Shown here: positions 8,173 through 60,342 of the stretch, piece after piece
How the letters are laid out: each line of letters starts with the position of its first letter
How positions within the stretch are numbered: position 1 is the stretch's first letter
Virus record (IMG/VR): IMGVR_UViG_3300021431_000075
Span: 544,001 to 608,000 of that record
Source of the DNA: a virus
Lineage: Duplodnaviria; Caudoviricetes
Strand: one strand, 5' to 3'
DNA: 64,000 nt
Program-made: the position numbers and the translations under genes
Notes under the pieces: generated by a model
What the model was told of the DNA's origin: nothing
Database searches by the model: none
The model's input: the letters and a program-made list of their open reading frames with translations, nothing else

Positions 8173-10086
8173 TTAATTGTCCAATCGTCCATATTCCATA
8201 TTCTCTATCATTTCGTCGCTGGTTATTGCCGATTCGATGACTTCCTTTATCTCTTTCTTCTCTGCACGAGTCAATTCAAGTTTATCAAAGATTTCATTAT
8301 CTGTATAAGCTTTGTCTGCAACGAATGGAATGAAATCCTTATATATATTTGTCCTTGCATTGACGCATGATAGTATAATGCCAACATATTTCATTATTGC
8401 AAGATGGCAGTTCTTCTTATAGTTCTCGATTTCTTCAACAGTATCCGCAACTATATAGCGCGGATTGATGTTTCTGTCTGTTAATTCAGAATTGTTCACT
8501 TCATATAACGGACTGAAGAACCAAGATTTTAAGCCATCAATCATCCGTTCAGAACGAATGCTGCATCTACTCTTGATATAGTTCTTTTGTGGAGCAGAAA
8601 GAAAATACGGATAAATCAATTTCGGTTTCTCGCCAGCGTCGCTAAGAATCGTCACTACTCCGAAACAGTCCCATAGTTTCTCCATAATCCTCTTGAATAT
8701 GTTCGGGTTTCCGAACTCGATGCAATGCCTTAACGAATATTCTTTTCGTAAGATGCCATGACAGCAGAAATCAAATGTCTCATATCTTTCGCCAAAATCC
8801 GCTGTGATAGACAAGAATGAAATGCATGCTTGTGTCTTTGTGAACTGATTCGTGTTCTCAAGACTTACATATCGGATATGTCCATCAAGCATTTTGTGAA
8901 TCTGATCTATATAATGATAAGATGTCTTTTCACCGATAACGACAGTTTTTATTGTTTCGTTGTCATAATCATCCATGACGCGTCTATGAATCACATATGT
9001 GTGAACCAATGACGAGTCTGTCAAAATTTTAGCAGTTCCTGTTTTCTTGACGTACTTCTGCAAGATGGTAGCCAAGACTTTATTGCCGAAATTTCCAGCA
9101 TTTGGAATATGCATGACAACATAGTCGTATCTTTCATCATTATGGTCCCAGAGTTCCTTGACATCTACGTTTGAATAATTAAGAAAACTCAATCTGTCTT
9201 TGACATTGTCTATCATGTCAGGTTTCATGCAATATATAGCAATCTTGCAAGTCTTTTCTATGTATATTTGCATCATATTGACAGCATCCGGGACAGATGA
9301 AGAAAATATGGCACATGAATCCGATTCTGTTATCCTGTCATCGAACAACAGTTTTCTATATGCAAATCTTTGCATACAGAACTCTTTCCTTGAATTTGAA
9401 TGGGCTTCGTCGTATTTCTTCTGTCTGTCTTTATCTGAATCATGTGCATTGTCTGTCATTTTCTTCAGATCGTTCATCACACGAGCAACATCCTTGTCTG
9501 CCTTTACCTTTTCATATAATTCATCAGTGTTCTCATTTTTGATTCCGTATATGAATTCATTTACGAGCATGATGATTATGTCGAACTCTTTCTTTGAATT
9601 GTGATAAGAGAGTTCTGTCGGACTGCCGCTCGTGTTGAACAAATCAACATCTTCCTGTGTTGCGGTTCCTTTTTCAACAAACTTCTTCAACTGCTGCCAT
9701 GTGTAATACGAACCATAGAACGGGTCTATGATTTTTGACACTGCCGGATGCAATTTTTCTCTGAAAATATCATCTATTTTCTGCGAATGATGTCCCGGTA
9801 TTATGATAATGTGCAAATTATAATAATAGTCGATCGCCTTTGATGATGATTTGGCACGCTTTGCTGTATCATCAATAATATGTTCATCGCGATTTTCTGT
9901 TTGAATGATTATGCGGTGCTGACCAAGTTTCCATGAAACATATTCGTTTTTGTTGAAACGCCGCTTGTTCTCACGGTCCGTAATGACATGATATAGTATA
10001 GTATACTGTGTAAGACCGGGTCTGAAAATGTAGTCAGGAAATGTTCTTGTTTCTGTGCAATCTGAAATATAACCAAAGTCGTTCAT
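8173..10086 (-). CDS. Hypothetical protein with a degenerate Eco57I-type adenine methyltransferase-like C-terminal half
   Basis: YDYVVMHIPN sits where FDxVxxNPPY is expected. The C-terminal FIPFVADKAYTDNEIFDKLELTRAEKKEI resembles the tail of this MTase family. Confidence 0.5.
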   Translation of the reverse strand: MNDFGYISDCTETRTFPDYIFRPGLTQYTILYHVITDRENKRRFNKNEYVSWKLGQHRIIIQTENRDEHIIDDTAKRAKSSSKAIDYYYNLHIIIIPGHHSQKIDDIFREKLHPAVSKIIDPFYGSYYTWQQLKKFVEKGTATQEDVDLFNTSGSPTELSYHNSKKEFDIIIMLVNEFIYGIKNENTDELYEKVKADKDVARVMNDLKKMTDNAHDSDKDRQKKYDEAHSNSRKEFCMQRFAYRKLLFDDRITESDSCAIFSSSVPDAVNMMQIYIEKTCKIAIYCMKPDMIDNVKDRLSFLNYSNVDVKELWDHNDERYDYVVMHIPNAGNFGNKVLATILQKYVKKTGTAKILTDSSLVHTYVIHRRVMDDYDNETIKTVVIGEKTSYHYIDQIHKMLDGHIRYVSLENTNQFTKTQACISFLSITADFGERYETFDFCCHGILRKEYSLRHCIEFGNPNIFKRIMEKLWDCFGVVTILSDAGEKPKLIYPYFLSAPQKNYIKSRCSIRSERMIDGLKSWFFSPLYEVNNSELTDRNINPRYIVADTVEEIENYKKNCHLAIMKYVGIILSCVNARTNIYKDFIPFVADKAYTDNEIFDKLELTRAEKKEIKEVIESAITSDEMIENMEYGRLDN

Positions 10087-18919: not shown

Positions 18920-19000
18920 AAAAAAGATAATGAGCAACTATTTTAGTTGCTCATTATATCTTCAATTTTAATTATTCTCTATACGGAAATAAGTGTCTAT
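18920..19000 (-). pseudogene. Terminator plus 3' remnant of a companion gene (copy of about 46721..46801)
   Basis: Near-identical to the end of the 46769..47545 gene and its hairpin. Encodes IDTYFRIENN* versus IDTYFHIEHN*, with an in-frame stop a few codons upstream. Confidence 0.7.
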
Positions 19001-22078: not shown

Positions 22079-22141
22079 GAAAACTTTGCTACATATGTTA
22101 TTTTAAAATGATTAAAACAAGAGTGTTAGTATTTTTAACGA

Positions 22142-22252
22142 TTGTTTCTAAACAGGTAAGTTTCAGTTAGTTACAACTTCATATAATGCTATTGTGAACA
22201 AATTGAAGTCTTTGAAACCCAGCAAGATGCAAACTTACCTGTTTAGAAACAA
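22142..22252. repeat. Switch locus 1: 22-bp perfect inverted repeat with 67-bp spacer
   Basis: TTGTTTCTAAACAGGTAAGTTT (22142-22163) and AAACTTACCTGTTTAGAAACAA (22231-22252). Confidence 0.95.
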
Positions 22253-22277
22253 ACTTCTAAAAATAAGAGTGCAATCG

Positions 22278-22352
22278 ATGGGAAAACTTTTGATTATCAA
22301 AGATGCAGACTTTGAAGAAAATTCTATTGAAAGAACACAGGTAGAACAATAA
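22278..22352 (+). CDS. Micro-ORF MGKLLIIKDADFEENSIERTQVEQ (24 aa)
   Basis: Manual translation; lies directly upstream of the 22373 gene. Confidence 0.65.
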   Translation: MGKLLIIKDADFEENSIERTQVEQ

Positions 22353-37405: not shown

Positions 37406-37480
37406 TTATTGTTCAACCTGTGTTCTTTCAATAGAATTATCTTCAAAATCTGCATCCTTGATAATCAAAAGTTTTCCCAT
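37406..37480 (-). CDS. Micro-ORF MGKLLIIKDADFEDNSIERTQVEQ (24 aa)
   Basis: Manual translation; differs from the 22278 copy by synonymous changes and one E/D substitution. Confidence 0.65.
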   Translation of the reverse strand: MGKLLIIKDADFEDNSIERTQVEQ

Positions 37481-37504
37481 TGATTGCACTCTTATTTTTT
37501 AGAA

Positions 37505-37617
37505 ATTGTTTCTAAACAGGTAAGTTTGCATCTTGCTGGTTTTCAAAGACTTCAATTTGTTCACAATAGCATTATATGAAGTTGTAACTAACTGAAACTT
37601 ACCTGTTTAGAAACAAT
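37505..37617. repeat. Switch locus 2: 23-bp perfect inverted repeat with 67-bp spacer
   Basis: ATTGTTTCTAAACAGGTAAGTTT (37505-37527) and AAACTTACCTGTTTAGAAACAAT (37595-37617). The whole region ~37392..37729 is an inverted near-copy of ~22029..22366. Confidence 0.95.
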
Positions 37618-37679
37618 CGTTAAAAATACTAACACTTTTATTTTAATCATTTTAAAATAACATATGTAGCAAAGTTTTC

Positions 37680-37760
37680 ATGGGAAAGATTGTAATCATA
37701 AAGGATGCAGATTTTGAAGAAAATTCAATTGACATTCATCAAACATCATCAGAACAATAA
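37680..37760 (+). CDS. Micro-ORF MGKIVIIKDADFEENSIDIHQTSSEQ (26 aa)
   Basis: Manual translation; lies directly upstream of the 37781 gene. Confidence 0.65.
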   Translation: MGKIVIIKDADFEENSIDIHQTSSEQ

Positions 37761-44457: not shown

Positions 44458-44667
44458 TGATTGCAAAATGATTACTTTTAGTATTAAAATTACAAAACTG
44501 CGAGGTTTCTTATTCAAGCGAGTTTGCTACAGCATAGAACTACTTACAATTCTCTAATGCACAGAAACTTACACCAACTAATTGAAAGAGTAGAACTTAC
44601 CTGAATAAGAAACGTTGGAATTTTGATATTTTAATACTAAATGTAATCATTTTGCAATCAATGAGTA
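44451..44667. repeat. Switch locus 3: inner site pair with 67-bp spacer, plus outer 40-bp inverted repeat over both start codons
   Basis: GTTTCTTATTCAAGCGAGTTT (44505-44525) and GAACTTACCTGAATAAGAAAC (44593-44613). The outer arms 44451-44490 and 44628-44667 match at 39 of 40 positions. Confidence 0.9.
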
Positions 44668-46720: not shown

Positions 46721-46762
46721 TAAAAAGATAATGAGCAACTATTTTAGTTGCTCATTTTATCT
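46721..46762. terminator. Bidirectional intrinsic terminator
   Basis: AAGATAATGAGCAACTA-ttt-TAGTTGCTCATTTTATCTT between convergent genes. Confidence 0.7.
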
Positions 46763-46768
46763 TCAATT

Positions 46769-47545
46769 TTAATTATGCTCTATATGGAAATAAGTGTCTA
46801 TGTTTGATTCATTCAAAACAAATGTTACATCAACTGTTTGCGCTGCACTTCCATAAGCAGCCATGTTCAAAGCGAAACCGCCGCCTGTTGATGGAAGATA
46901 ACTTGACAAGTCGATAACTGTTTCTACTGTTGCACTACCTTTCCATTGCGAATCTCTTGAAATTTCTGTCAAATCATTTCCGGTTGCATAACAAACTCTG
47001 ACTTTATATCCGGGCGCTACATAAATCGTATAGTTGTTATCACTAACTGCTGTCAAGCATTTGGTAGTAGTTCCTTCAACCGTATCATACCATCCATATA
47101 TCTTGTTGTAATAAGTATCTGTTGAAGTATAAACTTTGAATTTTTTATCCGTTCCCCAACTACCGGTTACTGAAACGATATTGTGTTCTTCATAGAATGA
47201 AACATGTTCTTCTACTGCAATTGTCTTAGTGGCAGAAATCAATGAATTATAAACAGACGTTGCACGGATAACAATACTTTGCGCACTTCTATTCATATCA
47301 ATCGTCAAAACGCCATAACTGTTGATAGACGCGATTTCGCTTCCTTCTACAATGCTCCATTCGACGTCGGTTTCTTCCGTGTTGGCAGGATTGTAAACTA
47401 TACTATATTCAACGCTTGTCGTGTTGCTTGATATAGTTGAAGGTCCATCAATGCTTATGCTTTCAACACGACCTGCCAAGAAAGTTACTTGTCCCAAGTT
47501 ATTATTTGAGAAATCCAAATCGGTCACTTTTATCGCGATACCCAT
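46769..47545 (-). CDS. Small companion protein of cassette 4L with an Ig-like (Big_2) domain
   Basis: MGIAIKVTDLDFSNNNLGQVT N-terminus; VESISIDG...YNPANTEETDVEWS...ASINSYGVLT Ig-like pattern. Confidence 0.75.
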   Translation of the reverse strand: MGIAIKVTDLDFSNNNLGQVTFLAGRVESISIDGPSTISSNTTSVEYSIVYNPANTEETDVEWSIVEGSEIASINSYGVLTIDMNRSAQSIVIRATSVYNSLISATKTIAVEEHVSFYEEHNIVSVTGSWGTDKKFKVYTSTDTYYNKIYGWYDTVEGTTTKCLTAVSDNNYTIYVAPGYKVRVCYATGNDLTEISRDSQWKGSATVETVIDLSSYLPSTGGGFALNMAAYGSAAQTVDVTFVLNESNIDTYFHIEHN

Positions 47546-48952: not shown

Positions 48953-49061
48953 GTTTCTTATTCAGGCGTGTTTGATGCGGCATATAACTACTTACAATTC
49001 TCTAATGCACAGAAACTTACACTAACTAAGGGAAAGAGTAGAACTTACCTGAATAAGAAAC
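48953..49061. repeat. Switch locus 4: site pair with 67-bp spacer
   Basis: GTTTCTTATTCAGGCGTGTTT (48953-48973) and GAACTTACCTGAATAAGAAAC (49041-49061). The spacer and left leader are a direct near-copy of locus 3. Confidence 0.9.
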
Positions 49062-49103
49062 GATGTTTTTGAACACTTATATAGTAAAATTAGACATCAA
49101 CTA

Positions 49104-53092: not shown

Positions 53093-56000
53093 CTAACTAC
53101 TTTGTTCAGTTTGCATATAGACTTCTTTATATACACCAACTTGTGTAGAACTTCCAGCACTGATACATCTATAACCAACTTTTAATAAATTTGTCATTAG
53201 TACAGGATTTTCTATTTCTATAGTAATGTTTGTATTAGTTGTTTTTAGTATTTTCCATTCATTACTATTTTCATTCGAAGGATTTGTATCACCTTTTGCA
53301 TCAATGATTAATTTTCCATTTTTTAATTCATAACCATACATTACATTAGATGTAGGAGTAGTACATTTCACTCTTGTTGTTAAACAACTGTTAATGTTAT
53401 CATCAAATAACACAGCCTGTTCAGAATATAGTTCAAATACGCTGTTTATAAATTGGTTTGATTTACTCGCTCCAATAAGTATATCATTTACTGTACCTTT
53501 TATGTGACATTTTATGTAACTATTTATGAAGTTAAATGCACCGGCATATATAAGATGACTATTGTTTGATGAAGAAGTAAATTTACAATCTACTACTTGT
53601 AAATTATTTATGGTTGATTCATTATCATAACAACGGAAGATGTTGTTTACACCTGTAATATTACAATTGATTATCTGAACATCATCTGTTCCAAAACCAA
53701 ATGAGCAAAATGTTGAACTTCCATTATCTAATATATTTCCATTATATAGACGTACAGTATTATTGCTAATAATATTATTATTTCCATTCATATAGTACAA
53801 ACCTCTAAAAAAGTCAATTGAATTATCCGCAACATCAATATTAAATACATTGTTATTGCAAATAATATTATCAACTCGATAAACATCTGTATTTCCACCG
53901 GTTTGTCCGATAATTGTAATGAAATTTGTATATGTGTGTTTTATTGCTATTATATTATCTTCAAATCTTGTACCTGCAGAACGTATCTGAACTTTTCCTT
54001 CAATATAACAATTTTTGATTAAACAGTCTTTAAATGCTGTTTTGTTGTTTCCTTGCATAAAAATAGCATAAAATGTACTACCATTATTATATGTGTTTAT
54101 AAATTTACAATTAATGATATTAAGTTTCTTTACATTTGCCAAACTTACTACTGCAGTAATACAACCATTAGTTGTAGAACTGTTTATCTCACTAAAAGAA
54201 CAATTATTTATGGTAATTGCTTCATAAGAATGACCATATATTGCAAACTGAATAGAATTTGCACTATTTTCAACAGAATTTATATTTTTAAACTCACAAC
54301 TTTCAAAAATAACATTTGCATTGACATCTTGAATTTTTACCAGTGAACGTGCAACCCACTTTGAGTTTGTTTCATCATAATATTCCAATGCTAAACCATT
54401 TGCATCAAAAATAGTATTTTCAACTCTGAATGAACTTTTGAACGTAACTACTGTATTTTTATTCAAAACTTTTATAGTTCCGCCATATATATTAGATTTT
54501 GGTTCTATCTCACCAGATATTCCATAAGTATTTGTAAGATGTATTGTATTACTTATAAAATGAGCTTTGCTTAATGCAATTGTATCATCAGTAATACCAT
54601 CACCGGTAGCACCGAACCATTCAGGGTAAGCTTCTGCAATATTCCATGAACCATCAAAATTGATATTTTCACCAAATATTTGTTCTTTATCAGCAACAAT
54701 AGATGTATTGTTACCTGTTATTGTAATGATATTGTTTGAATCATTTATAAATTTACCACCTATGAAACGTAAAGTGATATTATTTGGTAATACAAGAGAA
54801 TCTGACAATATAACATCTTCTTTTATATCTATGAATTTTTCAACTTCTATGTCAGTCGTTGCTGTATAATCTATCGGATTTATTTCATAACAAGGAACGA
54901 GTGGATTTGAAGAGTTATTTCCATATCTATATTGACTACCAAGAATATCATGATTATAATTATTCTTAACGCAAATATATTTGTAGTTTTCAACTATGAT
55001 TTTGCGTGTATTTCTTGAAACTGACAAATAACTATTTGTAAGATTTAATCCACAATCAAATCCTTGCCATGAACCAATATAACCATAATTGAAATATCTG
55101 CGTTTTATGCAATTAATAGTAGCAGTTTCAATAGCTTCGAAATAACCTTTATCAAAAACAACATTTCCACTGATAGAGCATATTCCATAACCTTCAAGAT
55201 TTGGTGATGCATTTGCTACATAACCAATTCCTTCGATAACAGAATTTGTTAAAGATATTTCACGACTACAATTTATTATACCTTCTTGACATGCCTCAAT
55301 CACTATATTATCAAAAATAGCATTTGTTGTTTGTCTGGAACAAAATAATCCAATATAACAATATCTTATCAAGAAATCTCTTTTGTGAGTACACCATTCA
55401 AAATCATCTATTACTCCGATATTAAATCTTTCAACATATATGTTTTCAATACTTCCTCTAACGAATGTAGTAGTTTGTTCAACGTTATGTACACCAGTAT
55501 TGTCATGATAACGAATATAACTATAAGATTCACCCATTTGTATTCCTATTGTCATATATAAATAAGACCACATATATTGACAATATTCTTCAAGAGAACA
55601 AATCATAGGATATACATCATCATTATCAACATAAGTATGTGATGATAGATAAGGTATTCTATAATCTCCTATTCTTTTTCCAATAGAATAACAAATATAT
55701 CTATATAAAATATTAGTTCGTACATCATCTATTCCGTTTAATTTTCTGGCAACGTAATTTCGTACCCAAGCAAACATATTCTCACGAACTTCATCATCTT
55801 CTTCAGAAGTAAATGTCGGATTTGAATAATTCGTCTCATAATACTTAATAAATGATGTGATTAAATCTTCATTAACTCTTAAGTTTCTCCAATCTGAATA
55901 TAAGATTTTACACAATTGATTAAACGTAAGACTTTTACCAGAATATGTTTTCGGCAATTTTTCATATGAATTATCTCCAATATATCTTAATGTATAACAT

Positions 56001-57742
56001 CCTGTATTGATAAACGAACCTATTATGCTAATTCCGATTTTAGCAGTAGTTAAAATAAAAGTTTTTTCACGCCCACTTCCATTAAAATTTATAACGGTAC
56101 TTGTATTTAAACGTAATCTTTTTATTGTTGTTTGTATAGTTAATGATTCATCAAGATAACCGTTTATTATATTCTCTGTAAAATCAGAATGTAAATTTAT
56201 AGTTTCATTAACATAATAATATCTCGGCAACAGTAAAATATTAAGTCCGATTCTCTTGCTAATACTTATTACTTTATTTAGTATTGATGAACAATATTCA
56301 GGTTCTGAAACAATATTATTATAACTTATTGCTCCCCACCACTCTATAAATAAATTTTCTACATTCCAGTTTCCTTCTAATTCTATATTATCAAATATCT
56401 TTATCATATTTGCATCAATATTAGCATTATTTCCAACTATTATTCCATTAGTAATTGAACCTCCATTAAATTTCAAAACACATCCATAAGGAAGTATAAG
56501 TTTTTTTGAAATATTATATCTTCCTTCATATATAGAAGAATTTATGGCAATGCAAGGAGTATAAAGTAAAGCATGAGATGTATTGTTTGTCAATGTATAT
56601 TCATTTCCATTAACAACATCCGGTTCTTTTTTGGTTGTTCCAAGTTCATTAAGAACTGTACATTCTCCAAGAACTGTTAGAACTAATGATGGTGTTCCAA
56701 TATTACTGCTTTCAACTGGAAATAAAGCAATAATTCTATTAATAAGTGTTTCTAATGGTATAGCTTCACTTCTTTCATATCTATTACCATTTATATTAGA
56801 ATATGTATCTAATGATATATTACTTTCTATACTTCTACTGCACAATATTGATGTATGAATGTCTGTTCCCGGTGTTGAAGTTCCAATGTATATATTATCA
56901 TCCGATTGCATAATATATTCATTGTTAGAAGTAGTTAGTTGTTGTTTATTTTTATCATATAATAATTCACCTTGACCAAGAGTTATTACATCTCCTTTAT
57001 TCAAAGAGAGAACATTAGACAGATAATGCGAAATACCAGTTTCTAATTGACTTGAAGATTTCATCCCAGTTGTATTGCAAGTAGAAATTGCAGTCAATTT
57101 AAAAGGTTTTTGTTGTATTGGTGACTTTTTTGCTAAATAAACAATATTCGTTGAAGGTAGATTGATAATATCTCCAAATTCATTATTATTAGAATCTATA
57201 AAAATACACCCATCAAGTCCCATTATTATATTTCCTTCATCAAATTGACTTAAATCAATTTGTGAATCAGATATATTGTATTTGAACGAACCGGAAATGA
57301 TTTGATTGCTTAAACTTAATACTGGTTCGTCATCTGTAACTTTTAAATTAAAGTTATTTCTGATTTCAAATATCGTATTTGTCTTTCCGGCAATCTGTTC
57401 TTCAATCGGACTATCTGAACGAAGAATACAATATCCTTTTGTATTTTCGACTGGAACATATGCTCTGTCTTTGATTTTCAGAACACCAACACCTGTCTGT
57501 GAGTCTAAAACTGTCGTAATATCGTCTTCATCAGGATTGTTAATTACATTTCCTTCGATATTGAATCTTCCATCTTCTTGCAACTGGCTTATGTCATTGT
57601 AGATTTCATCAATTGCTTCTTGAATGTTTGTTGCTTCAGTATTGCTTACAGTCTTATCAAAAGAAACTTTGGATGCATCTTGGCTGATGTTGTAGTTTAC
57701 TCCTTTGACTCTTATTTTGTTTACAGTACTATTGATAGACAT
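53093..57742 (-). CDS. Cassette 5L: large tail spike-like protein with two beta-helix regions
   Basis: MSINSTVNKIRVKGVNYNI; shares IEGNVxNNPDE...RAYVPVENxKGY with 49104; LKFNGG...IEWWGA and LRFIGG...PEWFGATGDGITDDTIAL (pectate lyase 3-like starts). Confidence 0.8.
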   Translation of the reverse strand: MSINSTVNKIRVKGVNYNISQDASKVSFDKTVSNTEATNIQEAIDEIYNDISQLQEDGRFNIEGNVINNPDEDDITTVLDSQTGVGVLKIKDRAYVPVENTKGYCILRSDSPIEEQIAGKTNTIFEIRNNFNLKVTDDEPVLSLSNQIISGSFKYNISDSQIDLSQFDEGNIIMGLDGCIFIDSNNNEFGDIINLPSTNIVYLAKKSPIQQKPFKLTAISTCNTTGMKSSSQLETGISHYLSNVLSLNKGDVITLGQGELLYDKNKQQLTTSNNEYIMQSDDNIYIGTSTPGTDIHTSILCSRSIESNISLDTYSNINGNRYERSEAIPLETLINRIIALFPVESSNIGTPSLVLTVLGECTVLNELGTTKKEPDVVNGNEYTLTNNTSHALLYTPCIAINSSIYEGRYNISKKLILPYGCVLKFNGGSITNGIIVGNNANIDANMIKIFDNIELEGNWNVENLFIEWWGAISYNNIVSEPEYCSSILNKVISISKRIGLNILLLPRYYYVNETINLHSDFTENIINGYLDESLTIQTTIKRLRLNTSTVINFNGSGREKTFILTTAKIGISIIGSFINTGCYTLRYIGDNSYEKLPKTYSGKSLTFNQLCKILYSDWRNLRVNEDLITSFIKYYETNYSNPTFTSEEDDEVRENMFAWVRNYVARKLNGIDDVRTNILYRYICYSIGKRIGDYRIPYLSSHTYVDNDDVYPMICSLEEYCQYMWSYLYMTIGIQMGESYSYIRYHDNTGVHNVEQTTTFVRGSIENIYVERFNIGVIDDFEWCTHKRDFLIRYCYIGLFCSRQTTNAIFDNIVIEACQEGIINCSREISLTNSVIEGIGYVANASPNLEGYGICSISGNVVFDKGYFEAIETATINCIKRRYFNYGYIGSWQGFDCGLNLTNSYLSVSRNTRKIIVENYKYICVKNNYNHDILGSQYRYGNNSSNPLVPCYEINPIDYTATTDIEVEKFIDIKEDVILSDSLVLPNNITLRFIGGKFINDSNNIITITGNNTSIVADKEQIFGENINFDGSWNIAEAYPEWFGATGDGITDDTIALSKAHFISNTIHLTNTYGISGEIEPKSNIYGGTIKVLNKNTVVTFKSSFRVENTIFDANGLALEYYDETNSKWVARSLVKIQDVNANVIFESCEFKNINSVENSANSIQFAIYGHSYEAITINNCSFSEINSSTTNGCITAVVSLANVKKLNIINCKFINTYNNGSTFYAIFMQGNNKTAFKDCLIKNCYIEGKVQIRSAGTRFEDNIIAIKHTYTNFITIIGQTGGNTDVYRVDNIICNNNVFNIDVADNSIDFFRGLYYMNGNNNIISNNTVRLYNGNILDNGSSTFCSFGFGTDDVQIINCNITGVNNIFRCYDNESTINNLQVVDCKFTSSSNNSHLIYAGAFNFINSYIKCHIKGTVNDILIGASKSNQFINSVFELYSEQAVLFDDNINSCLTTRVKCTTPTSNVMYGYELKNGKLIIDAKGDTNPSNENSNEWKILKTTNTNITIEIENPVLMTNLLKVGYRCISAGSSTQVGVYKEVYMQTEQSS

Positions 57743-57772
57743 TTTAGACTTATTAGAATTTTGGGTTAAATT

Positions 57773-58189
57773 CGTTTCTTATTCAGGTAAGTTTTGTTCT
57801 TTCCTTTCCGTCTTTGAAAACTGCTCGTTCTTTCCTTAAAAATGTTTTTTTATTTTTCAAGTCAAGAACTTCATCGAAAACGATTTTACTATTTATCTTG
57901 ATTTGACGCTTTCTTGTTATTCTGTTTTTGCTAATCAGATAAAAAGAAACATCCATTTCGATTGAGAGTTCTCAAATGCTGACAGTCACTTGTCATGACT
58001 AATCAGCCAAAGAAACACTTTTATTTTCATTATTTATCTTTGCATTTTGCGAGACCATTCAAAACGCTTTTCAGGTTTATTAGCACAGAACAGCTGCTGG
58101 ACTGCGATTTCTTGAAGTTAAGAAATCTTAATAAAAACACGTAACGCATTATTAATATTGAAGAACAAAACGTACCTGAATAAGAAACG
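57773..58189. promoter_or_regulatory. Switch locus 5: 29-bp inverted repeat (one mismatch) around a 359-bp segment with two left-pointing late-promoter motifs; candidate invertible promoter / expression site
   Basis: CGTTTCTTATTCAGGTAAGTTTTGTTCTT (57773-57801) and AAGAACAAAACGTACCTGAATAAGAAACG (58161-58189); GATAAATA on the minus strand at 57890-57897 and 58031-58038. Confidence 0.75.
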
Positions 58190-58229: not shown

Positions 58230-59768
58230 ATGAGTATGGATATAGGCAAGATAAGAGTAAAGGGAATTGTTTATAATCTCAAAGATAATCTATATGACAC
58301 GCTTGGAGACCACACTGACGGAAGCATGACTCAGGCAGCAATAACCAGCAATTTTGATGAGATTACTTCTGGCATTGCATCAAAAGCTGATGTTCAGAAC
58401 GACATCAATGCCGATTTTGACATAGCTGATGATAATAACCACTCTATTGTACGTTTCACTGACGGACATATCCAGACGCAGAACTTTGATAGCCATGATG
58501 TAAACAAATTAAAACAGAACGTTGGCTTAACAAAATATCAAGAGTTTTCTGACGAGAGTGATTATTATGTCGGAAACATCGTTCTTCATGACGGCTTGCT
58601 TTATAAGTTCACATCAAACCATACAGCAGGCTCATGGGACTCATCAGAAGTTGAAGAAACTGACATTACTGACAACATAGAAAAATCTACTGATGTTATC
58701 AATTCTTCATATGATTTTGATATTGCTGATGAAAACGGTCTTTCTATTCTAAGAGTATCAAACGGATACTTGAAAACAAAGAATTTTGACAGCGAGAACA
58801 TCGACACAGAAGTATCTCAAAAGACCGATGAGTATCTCCAGTATCTTCGTGGAGGTTCCCCATCTACTATCATAACAGGAATTCCTTCCAATGCAGACAT
58901 AGCAATTAATGACACAATCAAACAAATTCTTGCCACGTGTCCATATGCCGATATCATCCTCATAGCAAATCCTTCAACCAGACGCAACAAACAGCGTTTC
59001 ATAAAGAGGCGTGCATATATCGAAGAACTGAAAGCATTTGCAGATTTCTATTCATTTGGTTTCATCAATTTAAGAGATGCTGGCATATCAAGACCGATGG
59101 TAACGGACACGTCTTATTATACAACTGACGGAACTCACACAAACGATTTGGGAAGCGAGAAACTATTCAATTACATATACGGATTTCTAACACAACGTTA
59201 TAACGGAGAAGAAAATATATCATCAAAGAAAATACTTGTGATGGGAGATTCTTCTTGCGCTCATCAGAATCCAAGTAGCTCCTCGCCGGACGGATTCTTC
59301 TCTTGGAGTACATTGTTGATGAAAAAGTCCAATAGAAGATATGAACTGTTTGATTCTTCAAAATCTTATAATATCGGCGATGTGGTTAGACGTGAAGTGG
59401 AATACACATTATCGAACAACAAAACGGTTTCCATTCCGTATCTATACGAGTTCGTTAACAATCACAGCGGTTCTTGGACTCAAAATGATGTCAAAGTCGT
59501 TAAGAAAGATGTGTATTTGGCAGCAGTCGGCGGTTCTGGATGGAGTGCTGTAGCAGAGACTGGATACACGTCTTCGGACAGAGCAGTTTCTGTCCAGTTC
59601 AATGACTGGAAAGCAACAAAGACATTAGACCCGGTTACGCAGCAAGTGAATCCGGAGGATATAGACATCATTATCATAGGAACTGGCGGAAACGAGTTGA
59701 ACAAATTCAAACTCGATTATTCATCAACAATGAAGTATTTGTGTAATGATGAAACTATTGTTTATTAA
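58230..59768 (+). CDS. Cassette 5R: virion-type protein with a circularly permuted SGNH hydrolase and CBM-like modules
   Basis: KIRVKGIVYNLKDNLYDTLGDHTDGSMTQ N-terminus; DGTH block precedes the MGDS, GGSG and GGNE blocks. Confidence 0.75.
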   Translation: MSMDIGKIRVKGIVYNLKDNLYDTLGDHTDGSMTQAAITSNFDEITSGIASKADVQNDINADFDIADDNNHSIVRFTDGHIQTQNFDSHDVNKLKQNVGLTKYQEFSDESDYYVGNIVLHDGLLYKFTSNHTAGSWDSSEVEETDITDNIEKSTDVINSSYDFDIADENGLSILRVSNGYLKTKNFDSENIDTEVSQKTDEYLQYLRGGSPSTIITGIPSNADIAINDTIKQILATCPYADIILIANPSTRRNKQRFIKRRAYIEELKAFADFYSFGFINLRDAGISRPMVTDTSYYTTDGTHTNDLGSEKLFNYIYGFLTQRYNGEENISSKKILVMGDSSCAHQNPSSSSPDGFFSWSTLLMKKSNRRYELFDSSKSYNIGDVVRREVEYTLSNNKTVSIPYLYEFVNNHSGSWTQNDVKVVKKDVYLAAVGGSGWSAVAETGYTSSDRAVSVQFNDWKATKTLDPVTQQVNPEDIDIIIIGTGGNELNKFKLDYSSTMKYLCNDETIVY

Positions 59769-59790: not shown

Positions 59791-60342
59791 ATGGGAAAAG
59801 CGTTAATTATCAAAGGTGCTGATTTTTCTGCACACTCAATAGGTCCAATTCAAAGAATCGTTCAAATGGAATTTGAGCAGTCAAACATTATGTACAGACA
59901 GAGTGACTGCGGTGTTTATCCAAAACCGTCTGCGCAAGACCAAGTAGTTCTTCCGAAACGATGCAGAACAACAAATGGTACATTGATAGAAGTTGCACCA
60001 AACCAGACCATCACCATCAGCGGTTTGAAAGATCTATTTTATCGAATATTCGAATATCAGGCTTATACAAATGGAGCCGATGAATACAAAACAAATTATG
60101 CATTCACTGGAATAAACTATGGAACTTGGACTGACAATGTTTCAAATTGCTTAACTCCATATGTTTCCAGTTCTACAGATTCGAATATTGCATCAGGCTC
60201 AAGCGTGAACACAATAACTTATACAAATACACATGAAATGACAGTATATATTGGAATGCGTGTTGGCTGGAATGTTGACAGCGGAAAGAACGACACTAAC
60301 ATCTTGCCTGAGGAAATATCAGTGTTCGTTGAATATGATTAA
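59791..60342 (+). CDS. Small companion protein of cassette 5R
   Basis: MGKALIIKGADFSAHSIG N-terminus, homologous to the micro-ORFs. Confidence 0.75.
   Translation: MGKALIIKGADFSAHSIGPIQRIVQMEFEQSNIMYRQSDCGVYPKPSAQDQVVLPKRCRTTNGTLIEVAPNQTITISGLKDLFYRIFEYQAYTNGADEYKTNYAFTGINYGTWTDNVSNCLTPYVSSSTDSNIASGSSVNTITYTNTHEMTVYIGMRVGWNVDSGKNDTNILPEEISVFVEYD

Follow-up and report, generated by a model that had tools for sequence, protein, structure and literature searches.

A probable multi-locus recombination switch in a rumen megaphage, with a promoter cartridge found before different fibre-like genes

The vpma locus of Mycoplasma agalactiae and the vsp locus of Mycoplasma bovis combine a unique promoter with recombination sites located in the genes' 5' untranslated regions and with a tyrosine recombinase encoded at the locus, and rearrangement at these loci links a silent gene to the promoter (PMC2268961). 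By the logic of their layout, these systems and their tyrosine recombinases (Xer1 and Mbr, respectively) are the closest analogue of the switch described here. The present system differs from them in that its carrier is a phage, in that its genes are tail-fibre-like and arranged in divergent pairs that are distributed over 50 kb and interspersed with essential genes, in that it has two classes of recombination site, each with a promoter cartridge of its own, and in that the states seen for one of these classes (type A) are forward cassette swaps instead of plain inversions. 

Several other recombination switches share some features with this locus. In the capsule and fimbrial invertons of Bacteroides and in fimS of Escherichia coli, a promoter segment flips in place and so turns a single operon ON or OFF; these have in common with the phage a promoter on a short segment, inverted repeats and a site-specific recombinase, whereas the phage segment is seen in one orientation and changes locus. 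In the R64 shufflon, the Rci tyrosine recombinase acts at sfx sites, which appear to be asymmetric, and exchanges C-terminal coding segments of pilV. The likeness here lies in the many sites in both orientations, the single tyrosine recombinase and the many isomers per population, but crossover in the phage falls in an untranslated leader, and whole genes would be chosen via their promoter. The Gin, Cin and Min systems of phage Mu, phage P1 and p15B depend on serine invertases and an enhancer, and swap the C-terminal coding part of a gene behind a constant N-terminus. Like the locus under study, they are phage-encoded switches of the tail-fibre variant, and hence of host range; unlike them, this locus has a tyrosine recombinase, exchanges promoters and involves 14 complete genes. 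The host-range switches known from phages either swap fibre tips by means of serine invertases or mutate them by means of diversity-generating retroelements, and a full-text literature search, of incomplete coverage, found no phage with promoter shuffling among fibre genes.

The DNA analyzed here, termed the window, is a stretch of 64,000 nucleotides corresponding to positions 544001-608000 of a virus record (IMGVR_UViG_3300021431_000075; 673,114 bp) that has direct terminal repeats and represents a rumen megaphage; positions are those of the window unless given as genome positions. Near its right end, at what we term locus 5, a 29-nt inverted repeat (arms at 57773-57801 and 58161-58189, complementary at 28 of 29 positions) encloses 359 nt, and no match to such a repeat with three or fewer mismatches was found in the shuffled window. 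The repeat is set between two divergent genes: 5L (53093-57742, minus strand), which encodes a fibre- or spike-like protein of 1549 aa, and 5R (58230-59768, plus strand), which encodes a fibre-like protein of 512 aa with CBM5/12 and weak SGNH matches and is followed by a companion gene of 183 aa (59791-60342, plus strand). Each arm is a recombination site of type A, the left one on the plus strand with its 12-nt crossover core, GTTTCTTATTCA, at 57774-57785, and the right one on the minus strand with its core at 58177-58188. Between them lies the segment that we call the promoter cartridge sp5 (57802-58160, minus strand; 359 bp, or 391 nt from core to core), which holds two promoter-like GATAAATA motifs. 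Both motifs face 5L in the reference assembly, and the 5R side has none. The proximal copy (57890-57897, minus strand) lies 88 nt from the site, and the distal copy (58031-58038, minus strand) has a position weight matrix (PWM) score of 11.8, above the 5th percentile of the instances in the genome; its context, AAAGATAAATAATGAAAAT, closely resembles those of the motifs that precede the genes for the tail sheath (2547) and the tail tube (52217). A sequence-only reading of this DNA had pointed to the 359-bp segment, to its near-perfect inverted repeat with both motifs directed toward the 1549-aa gene and to the likeness with the sheath and tube upstream regions; coordinates and shuffles confirm the repeat and the motif directions, and the likeness holds for the distal copy. 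That reading had also taken sp5 for the only long spacer, which is correct within the window, but beyond the window end, at a distance of 5.5 kb, there is a second one of 1723 bp. A 57-aa open reading frame of sp5 (57783-57956, minus strand), which ends in the recombination site, is probably not a gene: it was rejected as an accessory protein for want of any family match, a 1-nt deletion in a relative of sp5 from another sample (run X4, below) falls within it, and it is alike to a 55-aa reading frame of the type-B cartridge in the promoter motif only, the two ending in their sites in different frames.

Sites of this kind are present in 14 copies in the whole 673-kb genome, forming seven inverted pairs with none left unpaired. 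Four of the pairs have the type-A form (GTTTCTTATTCAGGTAAGTT and variants), located at 44505/44594 (locus 3, 44505-44614), at 48953/49042 (locus 4, 48953-49062), at 57774/58169 (locus 5) and, 200 nt beyond the window end, at genome positions 608204/608293 (locus 6). The type-B form (GTTTCTAAACAGGTAAGTTT) accounts for the pairs at 22144/22231 (locus 1, 22132-22262), at 37508/37595 (locus 2, 37496-37626) and at genome positions 613480/615223 (locus 7). Eight genes are associated with the type-A sites of loci 3-6 and six with the type-B sites of loci 1, 2 and 7. The two classes have the blocks GTTTCT and CAGGTAAGTT in common and differ by one base in the length between both blocks; the type-A sites lie 31-45 nt upstream of a start codon, and the sites are without the clear dyad symmetry of classic core sites. 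Five of the seven spacers are short, the type-B spacers of loci 1 and 2 measuring 67 nt and the type-A spacers of loci 3, 4 and 6 measuring 85 nt from core to core, while the two long ones are sp5 and the 1723-bp spacer of locus 7. The spacer of locus 4 (sp4, 48965-49049) is the exact reverse complement of that of locus 6 (sp6, genome positions 608216-608300), and a single base separates sp1 from sp2, the spacers of loci 1 and 2; these relations imply that spacers were inverted or copied in the past. When IMG/VR was scanned for the exact pattern of the site, 65 single matches emerged, about the number expected by chance, and no relatives.

Each site pair is enclosed by one pair of divergent genes, for a total of 14 long genes in seven pairs. 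All 14 encode the N-terminal motif VTKIxV..Y.., in most cases followed by LYDxxGxNTDGxxTQ, and many of them resemble one another at 75-91% in their leaders and N-terminal coding parts, over stretches of 45-478 nt. The C-terminal parts are diverse, with matches to SGNH/GDSL esterases, beta-helix proteins, DUF4886, CBM5/12, M14 peptidases and alpha/beta hydrolases, and the product of 3R matches a PHROG tail-fibre family. As in the vpma and vsp families, a conserved 5' leader and N-terminus are thus joined to a variable remainder. Loci 4 and 5 have the tail tube gene between them, and the genes for the tail sheath and the large terminase are close by. From these features we infer that the 14 genes code for alternative fibres with a receptor-binding or depolymerase role, all built on a common docking module. 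Among other features of this gene set, the type-B leaders contain a reading frame of about 24 aa (MGK(L/I)(L/V)IIKDADFEENSI...) at 22278-22352, 37406-37480 and 37680-37754, with one more copy beyond the window; this frame is similar to the N-terminus of the 183-aa companion of 5R (59791) and may be a remnant of a companion gene or a real upstream reading frame. In addition, an 80-nt repeat (18921-19000 and 46722-46801, 96% identical) that contains a hairpin (ATGAGCAACTA...TAGTTGCTCAT) is positioned after the 3' end of 1L and after the 3' ends of 3R and the 4L companion, and looks like a common terminator module.

The GATAAATA motif has 90 copies genome-wide, 75 of them intergenic in a genome that is 11% intergenic, and 56 of the 90 lie no more than 150 nt upstream of a gene on the same strand, mostly 20-40 nt ahead of the start codon. 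In the wider RATAAATA set, 157 of 192 copies are intergenic and the median distance is 28 nt. Together with AATAAATA, GATAAATA ranks as one of the top two enriched 8-mers in upstream regions, and the motif is present ahead of the sheath, tube and terminase genes. Phages with a tube protein 77% identical to that of the megaphage have kept RATAAATA before the tube gene; no such recombination sites were found in these phages. One divergent fibre pair met in this comparison has N-terminal homology only. We regard GATAAATA as a real promoter-like motif of this megaphage, and its placement suggests that it acts as a promoter. The motif is not over-represented in the window as a whole (6 copies vs 5.1 expected), and at the switch loci its distribution is uneven. 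RATAAATA is found twice in sp5 and twice in sp7, the spacer of locus 7, with the copies within each spacer facing the same way, and is lacking from the other five spacers and from all 14 leaders; with a PWM built from 123 other instances, sp5 and sp7 are likewise the only ones among the seven switch loci to exceed the 5th percentile. On this basis, the 14 genes appear to share two promoter-bearing spacers, one per site class. These two cartridges are unrelated in sequence, except for the context of the proximal motif, AAGATAAATA(G/C)TAAAAT, which lies 82-88 nt from the site in both.

A single match to tyrosine recombinases was detected in the genome, a gene for a protein of 330 aa at genome positions 613595-614587, just outside the window and inside the type-B cartridge of locus 7. 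The protein scores 27.7 bits against Phage_int_SAM_5 (cut-off 22.3), a domain common in Bacteroidota integrases, and 24.6 bits against Phage_integrase, under the cut-off of 27.1. Its catalytic residues (R187, K210, H290, R293, H316 and Y325) are invariant in 33 homologues of 34-84% identity. An AlphaFold model (mean pLDDT 90.7) has a two-domain fold, with a core-binding helical domain and a catalytic domain, and the top Foldseek matches are lambda integrase, the Tn1549 integrase, XerA and Cre (probability 1.00, E 2e-8 to 1e-5); a sequence search of the PDB gave chance matches only. The fold search settles the identity of the protein, which, as judged from its sequence and predicted structure, is a tyrosine recombinase of the lambda Int/Cre/Xer superfamily. 

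A search with this protein among viral contigs found no related locus. Two of its homologues are carried by cartridges of similar design. The closest, at 84% identity and from sister samples, is encoded in a 2.85-kb cartridge that also holds a TnpB gene and GATAAATA motifs, lies between fibre-like genes and is bounded by the same 20-mer (20/20 and 19/20); its gene order is that of the reference genome with the block between loci 1 and 2 inverted. The second, at 57% identity and from an unrelated study, lies between GTTTCTAA(A/T)CAGGTAA sites together with four promoter motifs that face outward, and one of its contigs ends at both sites. The sites flanking both homologue cartridges conform to GTTTCTAA(A/T)C(A/G)GGTAA. 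Because the two homologues reside in like site-flanked cartridges, the pairing of enzyme and site is conserved. The type-A cartridge is without a recombinase of its own, and we infer that the same enzyme acts on the type-A sites. 

Some further features of the recombinase genes deserve mention. In the closest relative, the TnpB (OrfB_IS605) gene was gained directly upstream of the recombinase gene, at positions 8693-9946 of its contig. Upstream of the recombinase start in the megaphage (genome ~614.6 kb) stands TAATTTTG, which fits the Bacteroidota -7 promoter consensus, TAnnTTTG, and hints at expression by the host polymerase and at a Bacteroidota host. The genome also carries resolvase-type serine recombinase genes, five of them (~205 aa) over the Pfam cut-off and one a weaker match, at genome positions 76640-77020, 86043-86435, 119357-119767, 198780-199196, 308136-308522 and 655541-655840; spread over 76-655 kb, none is near the switch sites. 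With no serine recombinase at the loci and crossover in the leader, not in coding sequence, the hallmarks of the Gin, Cin and Min switches are absent.

Alternative arrangements of the loci were found by looking up the locus proteins in public assemblies whose flanks are 100% identical to the reference; a single study, with several sub-samples under one umbrella biosample, supplies all of the DNA evidence for relocation. The reference arrangement, 5L-sp5-5R, is that of the IMG/VR record, of ENA ERZ28612959 (S005) scaffold_1 (673.7 kb), of a 15.2-kb Logan contig of SRR873597 and of JGI 3300002641 loc_105452963. In other assemblies, sp5 is docked at locus 3 in place of the promoter-less 85-nt spacer (sp3) that the reference has there, giving 3L-sp5-3R with the promoter motifs toward 3L (ENA ERZ28612978 (S006) scaffold_1616, 40.8 kb; ENA ERZ12302814 NODE_4039, 22.9 kb, coverage 26.5; JGI loc_107405325 and loc_107434569). 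Locus 5, in turn, is found with sp3 (JGI loc_107407125) or with a spacer of the sp4/sp6 type (ENA scaffold_1616 and ENA NODE_73409), and at its right site the 5R leader is joined to spacers of other loci in other assemblies. In SRR873598, a Logan contig has the 5L leader connected to the left end of sp3 across just 12 shared letters, a stretch too short for k=31, so that this joint is not an assembly artefact. The breaks between contigs of SRR873598 coincide exactly with the left arm's outer edge and the right arm's core, and the 15-kb contig of SRR873597 passes through both arms unbroken. 

The recombinant joints fall within the 12-nt core GTTTCTTATTCA, and the crossover thus lies in the 5' leader, as it does in the vpma and vsp systems; the base outside the core remains with the gene, and the inner half-site remains with the spacer. 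Since the shared stretches of 12-14 nt are too short for k-mer collapse and four pipelines agree, we place the crossover inside GTTTCTTATTCA. The earlier proposal that the repeat arms are recombination sites is borne out by these joints in several assemblies. No rule for which spacer ends join which leader types fits all of the joints. Loci 4 and 6 retain their own spacers in every contig examined, and one assembly set seemingly has three spacers of the sp4/6 type and no sp3; given the sp4/sp6 and sp1/sp2 identities and this apparent loss of sp3, some copying may also take place. For the type-B class, the cartridge is at locus 7 in the reference and at locus 1 in JGI loc_107417028 and in scaffold_1616, as well as in an NCBI contig, there by gene order only, and two Logan contigs consist of the type-B cartridge alone, ending at both sites. 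Outside the umbrella biosample, a run from sheep gut in another study (X4) contains sp5 in a 97%-identical copy that is connected to the 5R leader; the contig carrying it starts precisely at the left core. One apparent joint between opposite strands (4451/20000) was rejected as a recombinant, being a cross-match of paralogous N-termini, and apparent skips with sides of 20-25 letters were set aside as foreign contigs.

RNA contigs from the same biosample (metatranscriptome run X3) are present on the tube gene, and six of them lie along 5L. One of 890 nt, corresponding to 57100-57989, extends from inside sp5 across the left site and the leader and into 5L. The upstream end of this contig (57989) is situated between the distal and the proximal motif, which places the start of at least some transcripts upstream of the latter; this fits the distal motif at 58031, the end being that of a contig and not a mapped start site. 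The RNA contigs fall on only 14 of 30 bins despite an even DNA depth throughout the stretch, a pattern that speaks against carry-over of DNA. There are no X3 contigs on 5R, 3R, 4L or 4R and almost none on 6L, missing cover not being counted as silence. Motif direction and the RNA contig from sp5 into 5L both agree with the earlier claim that 5L is ON in the assembled orientation; its second half, that a flip reverses the state, is matched by no flipped copy. The predicted 283-nt leader RNA that extends from the distal promoter to the 5L start codon (57743-58025, minus strand) folds at -67.7 kcal/mol, with z = -4.6 vs shuffles, and in the predicted fold a GUUUCUU near its 5' end pairs with the AAGAAAC of the recombination site.

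How these arrangements arise can be read in several ways. The sequence-only reading had the 359-bp segment flip between its own arms and thereby toggle 5L against 5R and its companion, and the layout of locus 5 lends itself to such a reaction: its inverted arms are identical at 28 of 29 positions, a length of 359 bp suffices for looping, the promoter motifs all point in the same direction, and a recombinase that inverts between loci could act on both arms of sp5 too. However, in nine of nine contexts (from five assemblies and run X4) the promoter end of sp5 is on an L gene, 5L or 3L, and an R gene adjoins its other end. None of these nine, a small sample drawn from contigs, which drop rare variants, shows an in-place flip, and the coexistence of both orientations between a segment's own repeats, by which an inverton is recognized, was not observed for sp5. 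The variation that is seen consists instead of relocation to locus 3 and replacement by blank spacers, and we consider in-place inversion improbable. The term expression site, also applied to locus 5 by that reading, remains apt insofar as many genes would be served by one promoter, although locus 5 is no fixed site. 

Were the exchanges due to general homologous recombination or to gene conversion among the leaders of paralogues, with no dedicated site-specific recombinase, they would make use of the extensive likeness among many of the leaders and N-terminal coding parts, and the exact inverted copies sp4 and sp6, the one-base difference between sp1 and sp2 and the assembly set that seems to have three sp4/6-type spacers and no sp3 could all reflect copying. 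Yet the 5L leader shares just 12-13 nt with the leaders of 3L, 4L and 6L, and the 5L-sp3, 5L-sp6 and 3L-sp5 joints fall exactly there; furthermore, the core is conserved beside the 84% and 57% recombinase homologues where the flanks have diverged, and the recombinase gene itself sits within one of the cartridges. On balance, there is little to recommend homologous recombination as the source of these joints. It is harder still to credit that the repeat is a regulatory element in the 5' leaders of paralogues, whether an operator or an RNA element, and that the alternative arrangements are assembly chimeras. A similar distance to the start codon (31-45 nt) would indeed yield inverted repeats automatically wherever such paralogues diverge, and the predicted 283-nt leader folds unusually well, but the same non-reference joints come from different pipelines (two ENA assemblies, JGI and Logan) between partners sharing 12-14 nt, and whole loci with both of their joints are present on contigs of 22.9 and 40.8 kb with full coverage.

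The explanation that we favour, and hold to be likely, is that sp5 is one of two promoter cartridges in a multi-locus recombination switch and moves between loci rather than flipping in place. Each gene carries a recombination site in its 5' leader, such that each divergent pair encloses a spacer between inverted sites; according to this model, one promoter-bearing spacer would be available per class, sp5 for the eight type-A genes and the 1.7-kb recombinase-encoding segment for the six type-B genes; and site-specific crossover in GTTTCTTATTCA would exchange spacers between loci and so place the promoter before a different fibre gene. The model builds on observed sites, recombinant joints and motif positions and on the RNA contig that leads from the cartridge into 5L. 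The location of sp5 probably decides which host-binding fibre is made; the other fibre genes would meanwhile be silent, and a change in receptor specificity would be the outcome. 

Orientation bears on the reaction path of the type-A class. Two nested inversions would both swap and invert the spacers. This matches the type-B cartridge, which is found inverted at locus 1, but would not yield the swaps at loci 3 and 5, where the type-A spacers stay forward and which could proceed through several inversions (at least four), through excision between direct sites and re-insertion or through exchange between replicating genome copies. A more far-reaching version of the relocation model can be offered tentatively, as a possibility about which we remain rather doubtful: a single tyrosine recombinase would serve two site classes that do not cross-react (TTATT vs TAAA in the crossover region), each virion lineage would always express exactly one of the eight type-A and one of the six type-B fibres, allowing up to 48 combinations, and the forward type-A swaps would represent a natural form of recombinase-mediated cassette exchange, either through excision followed by re-insertion or between copies of the genome, and not inversion.

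The recombinase and its sites form a compact natural pair, possibly with two orthogonal site classes, and the existence of natural isomers and of RNA data makes the idea directly testable on public reads. It appears that this phage maintains 14 complete receptor-binding or depolymerase genes as a library and selects among them through the movement of promoters, a logic known from the surface antigens of Mycoplasma. If true, this would mean that one database 'genome' is one isomer among many, and it would account for the way in which a very large gut phage deals with the phase-variable surfaces of Bacteroidota.
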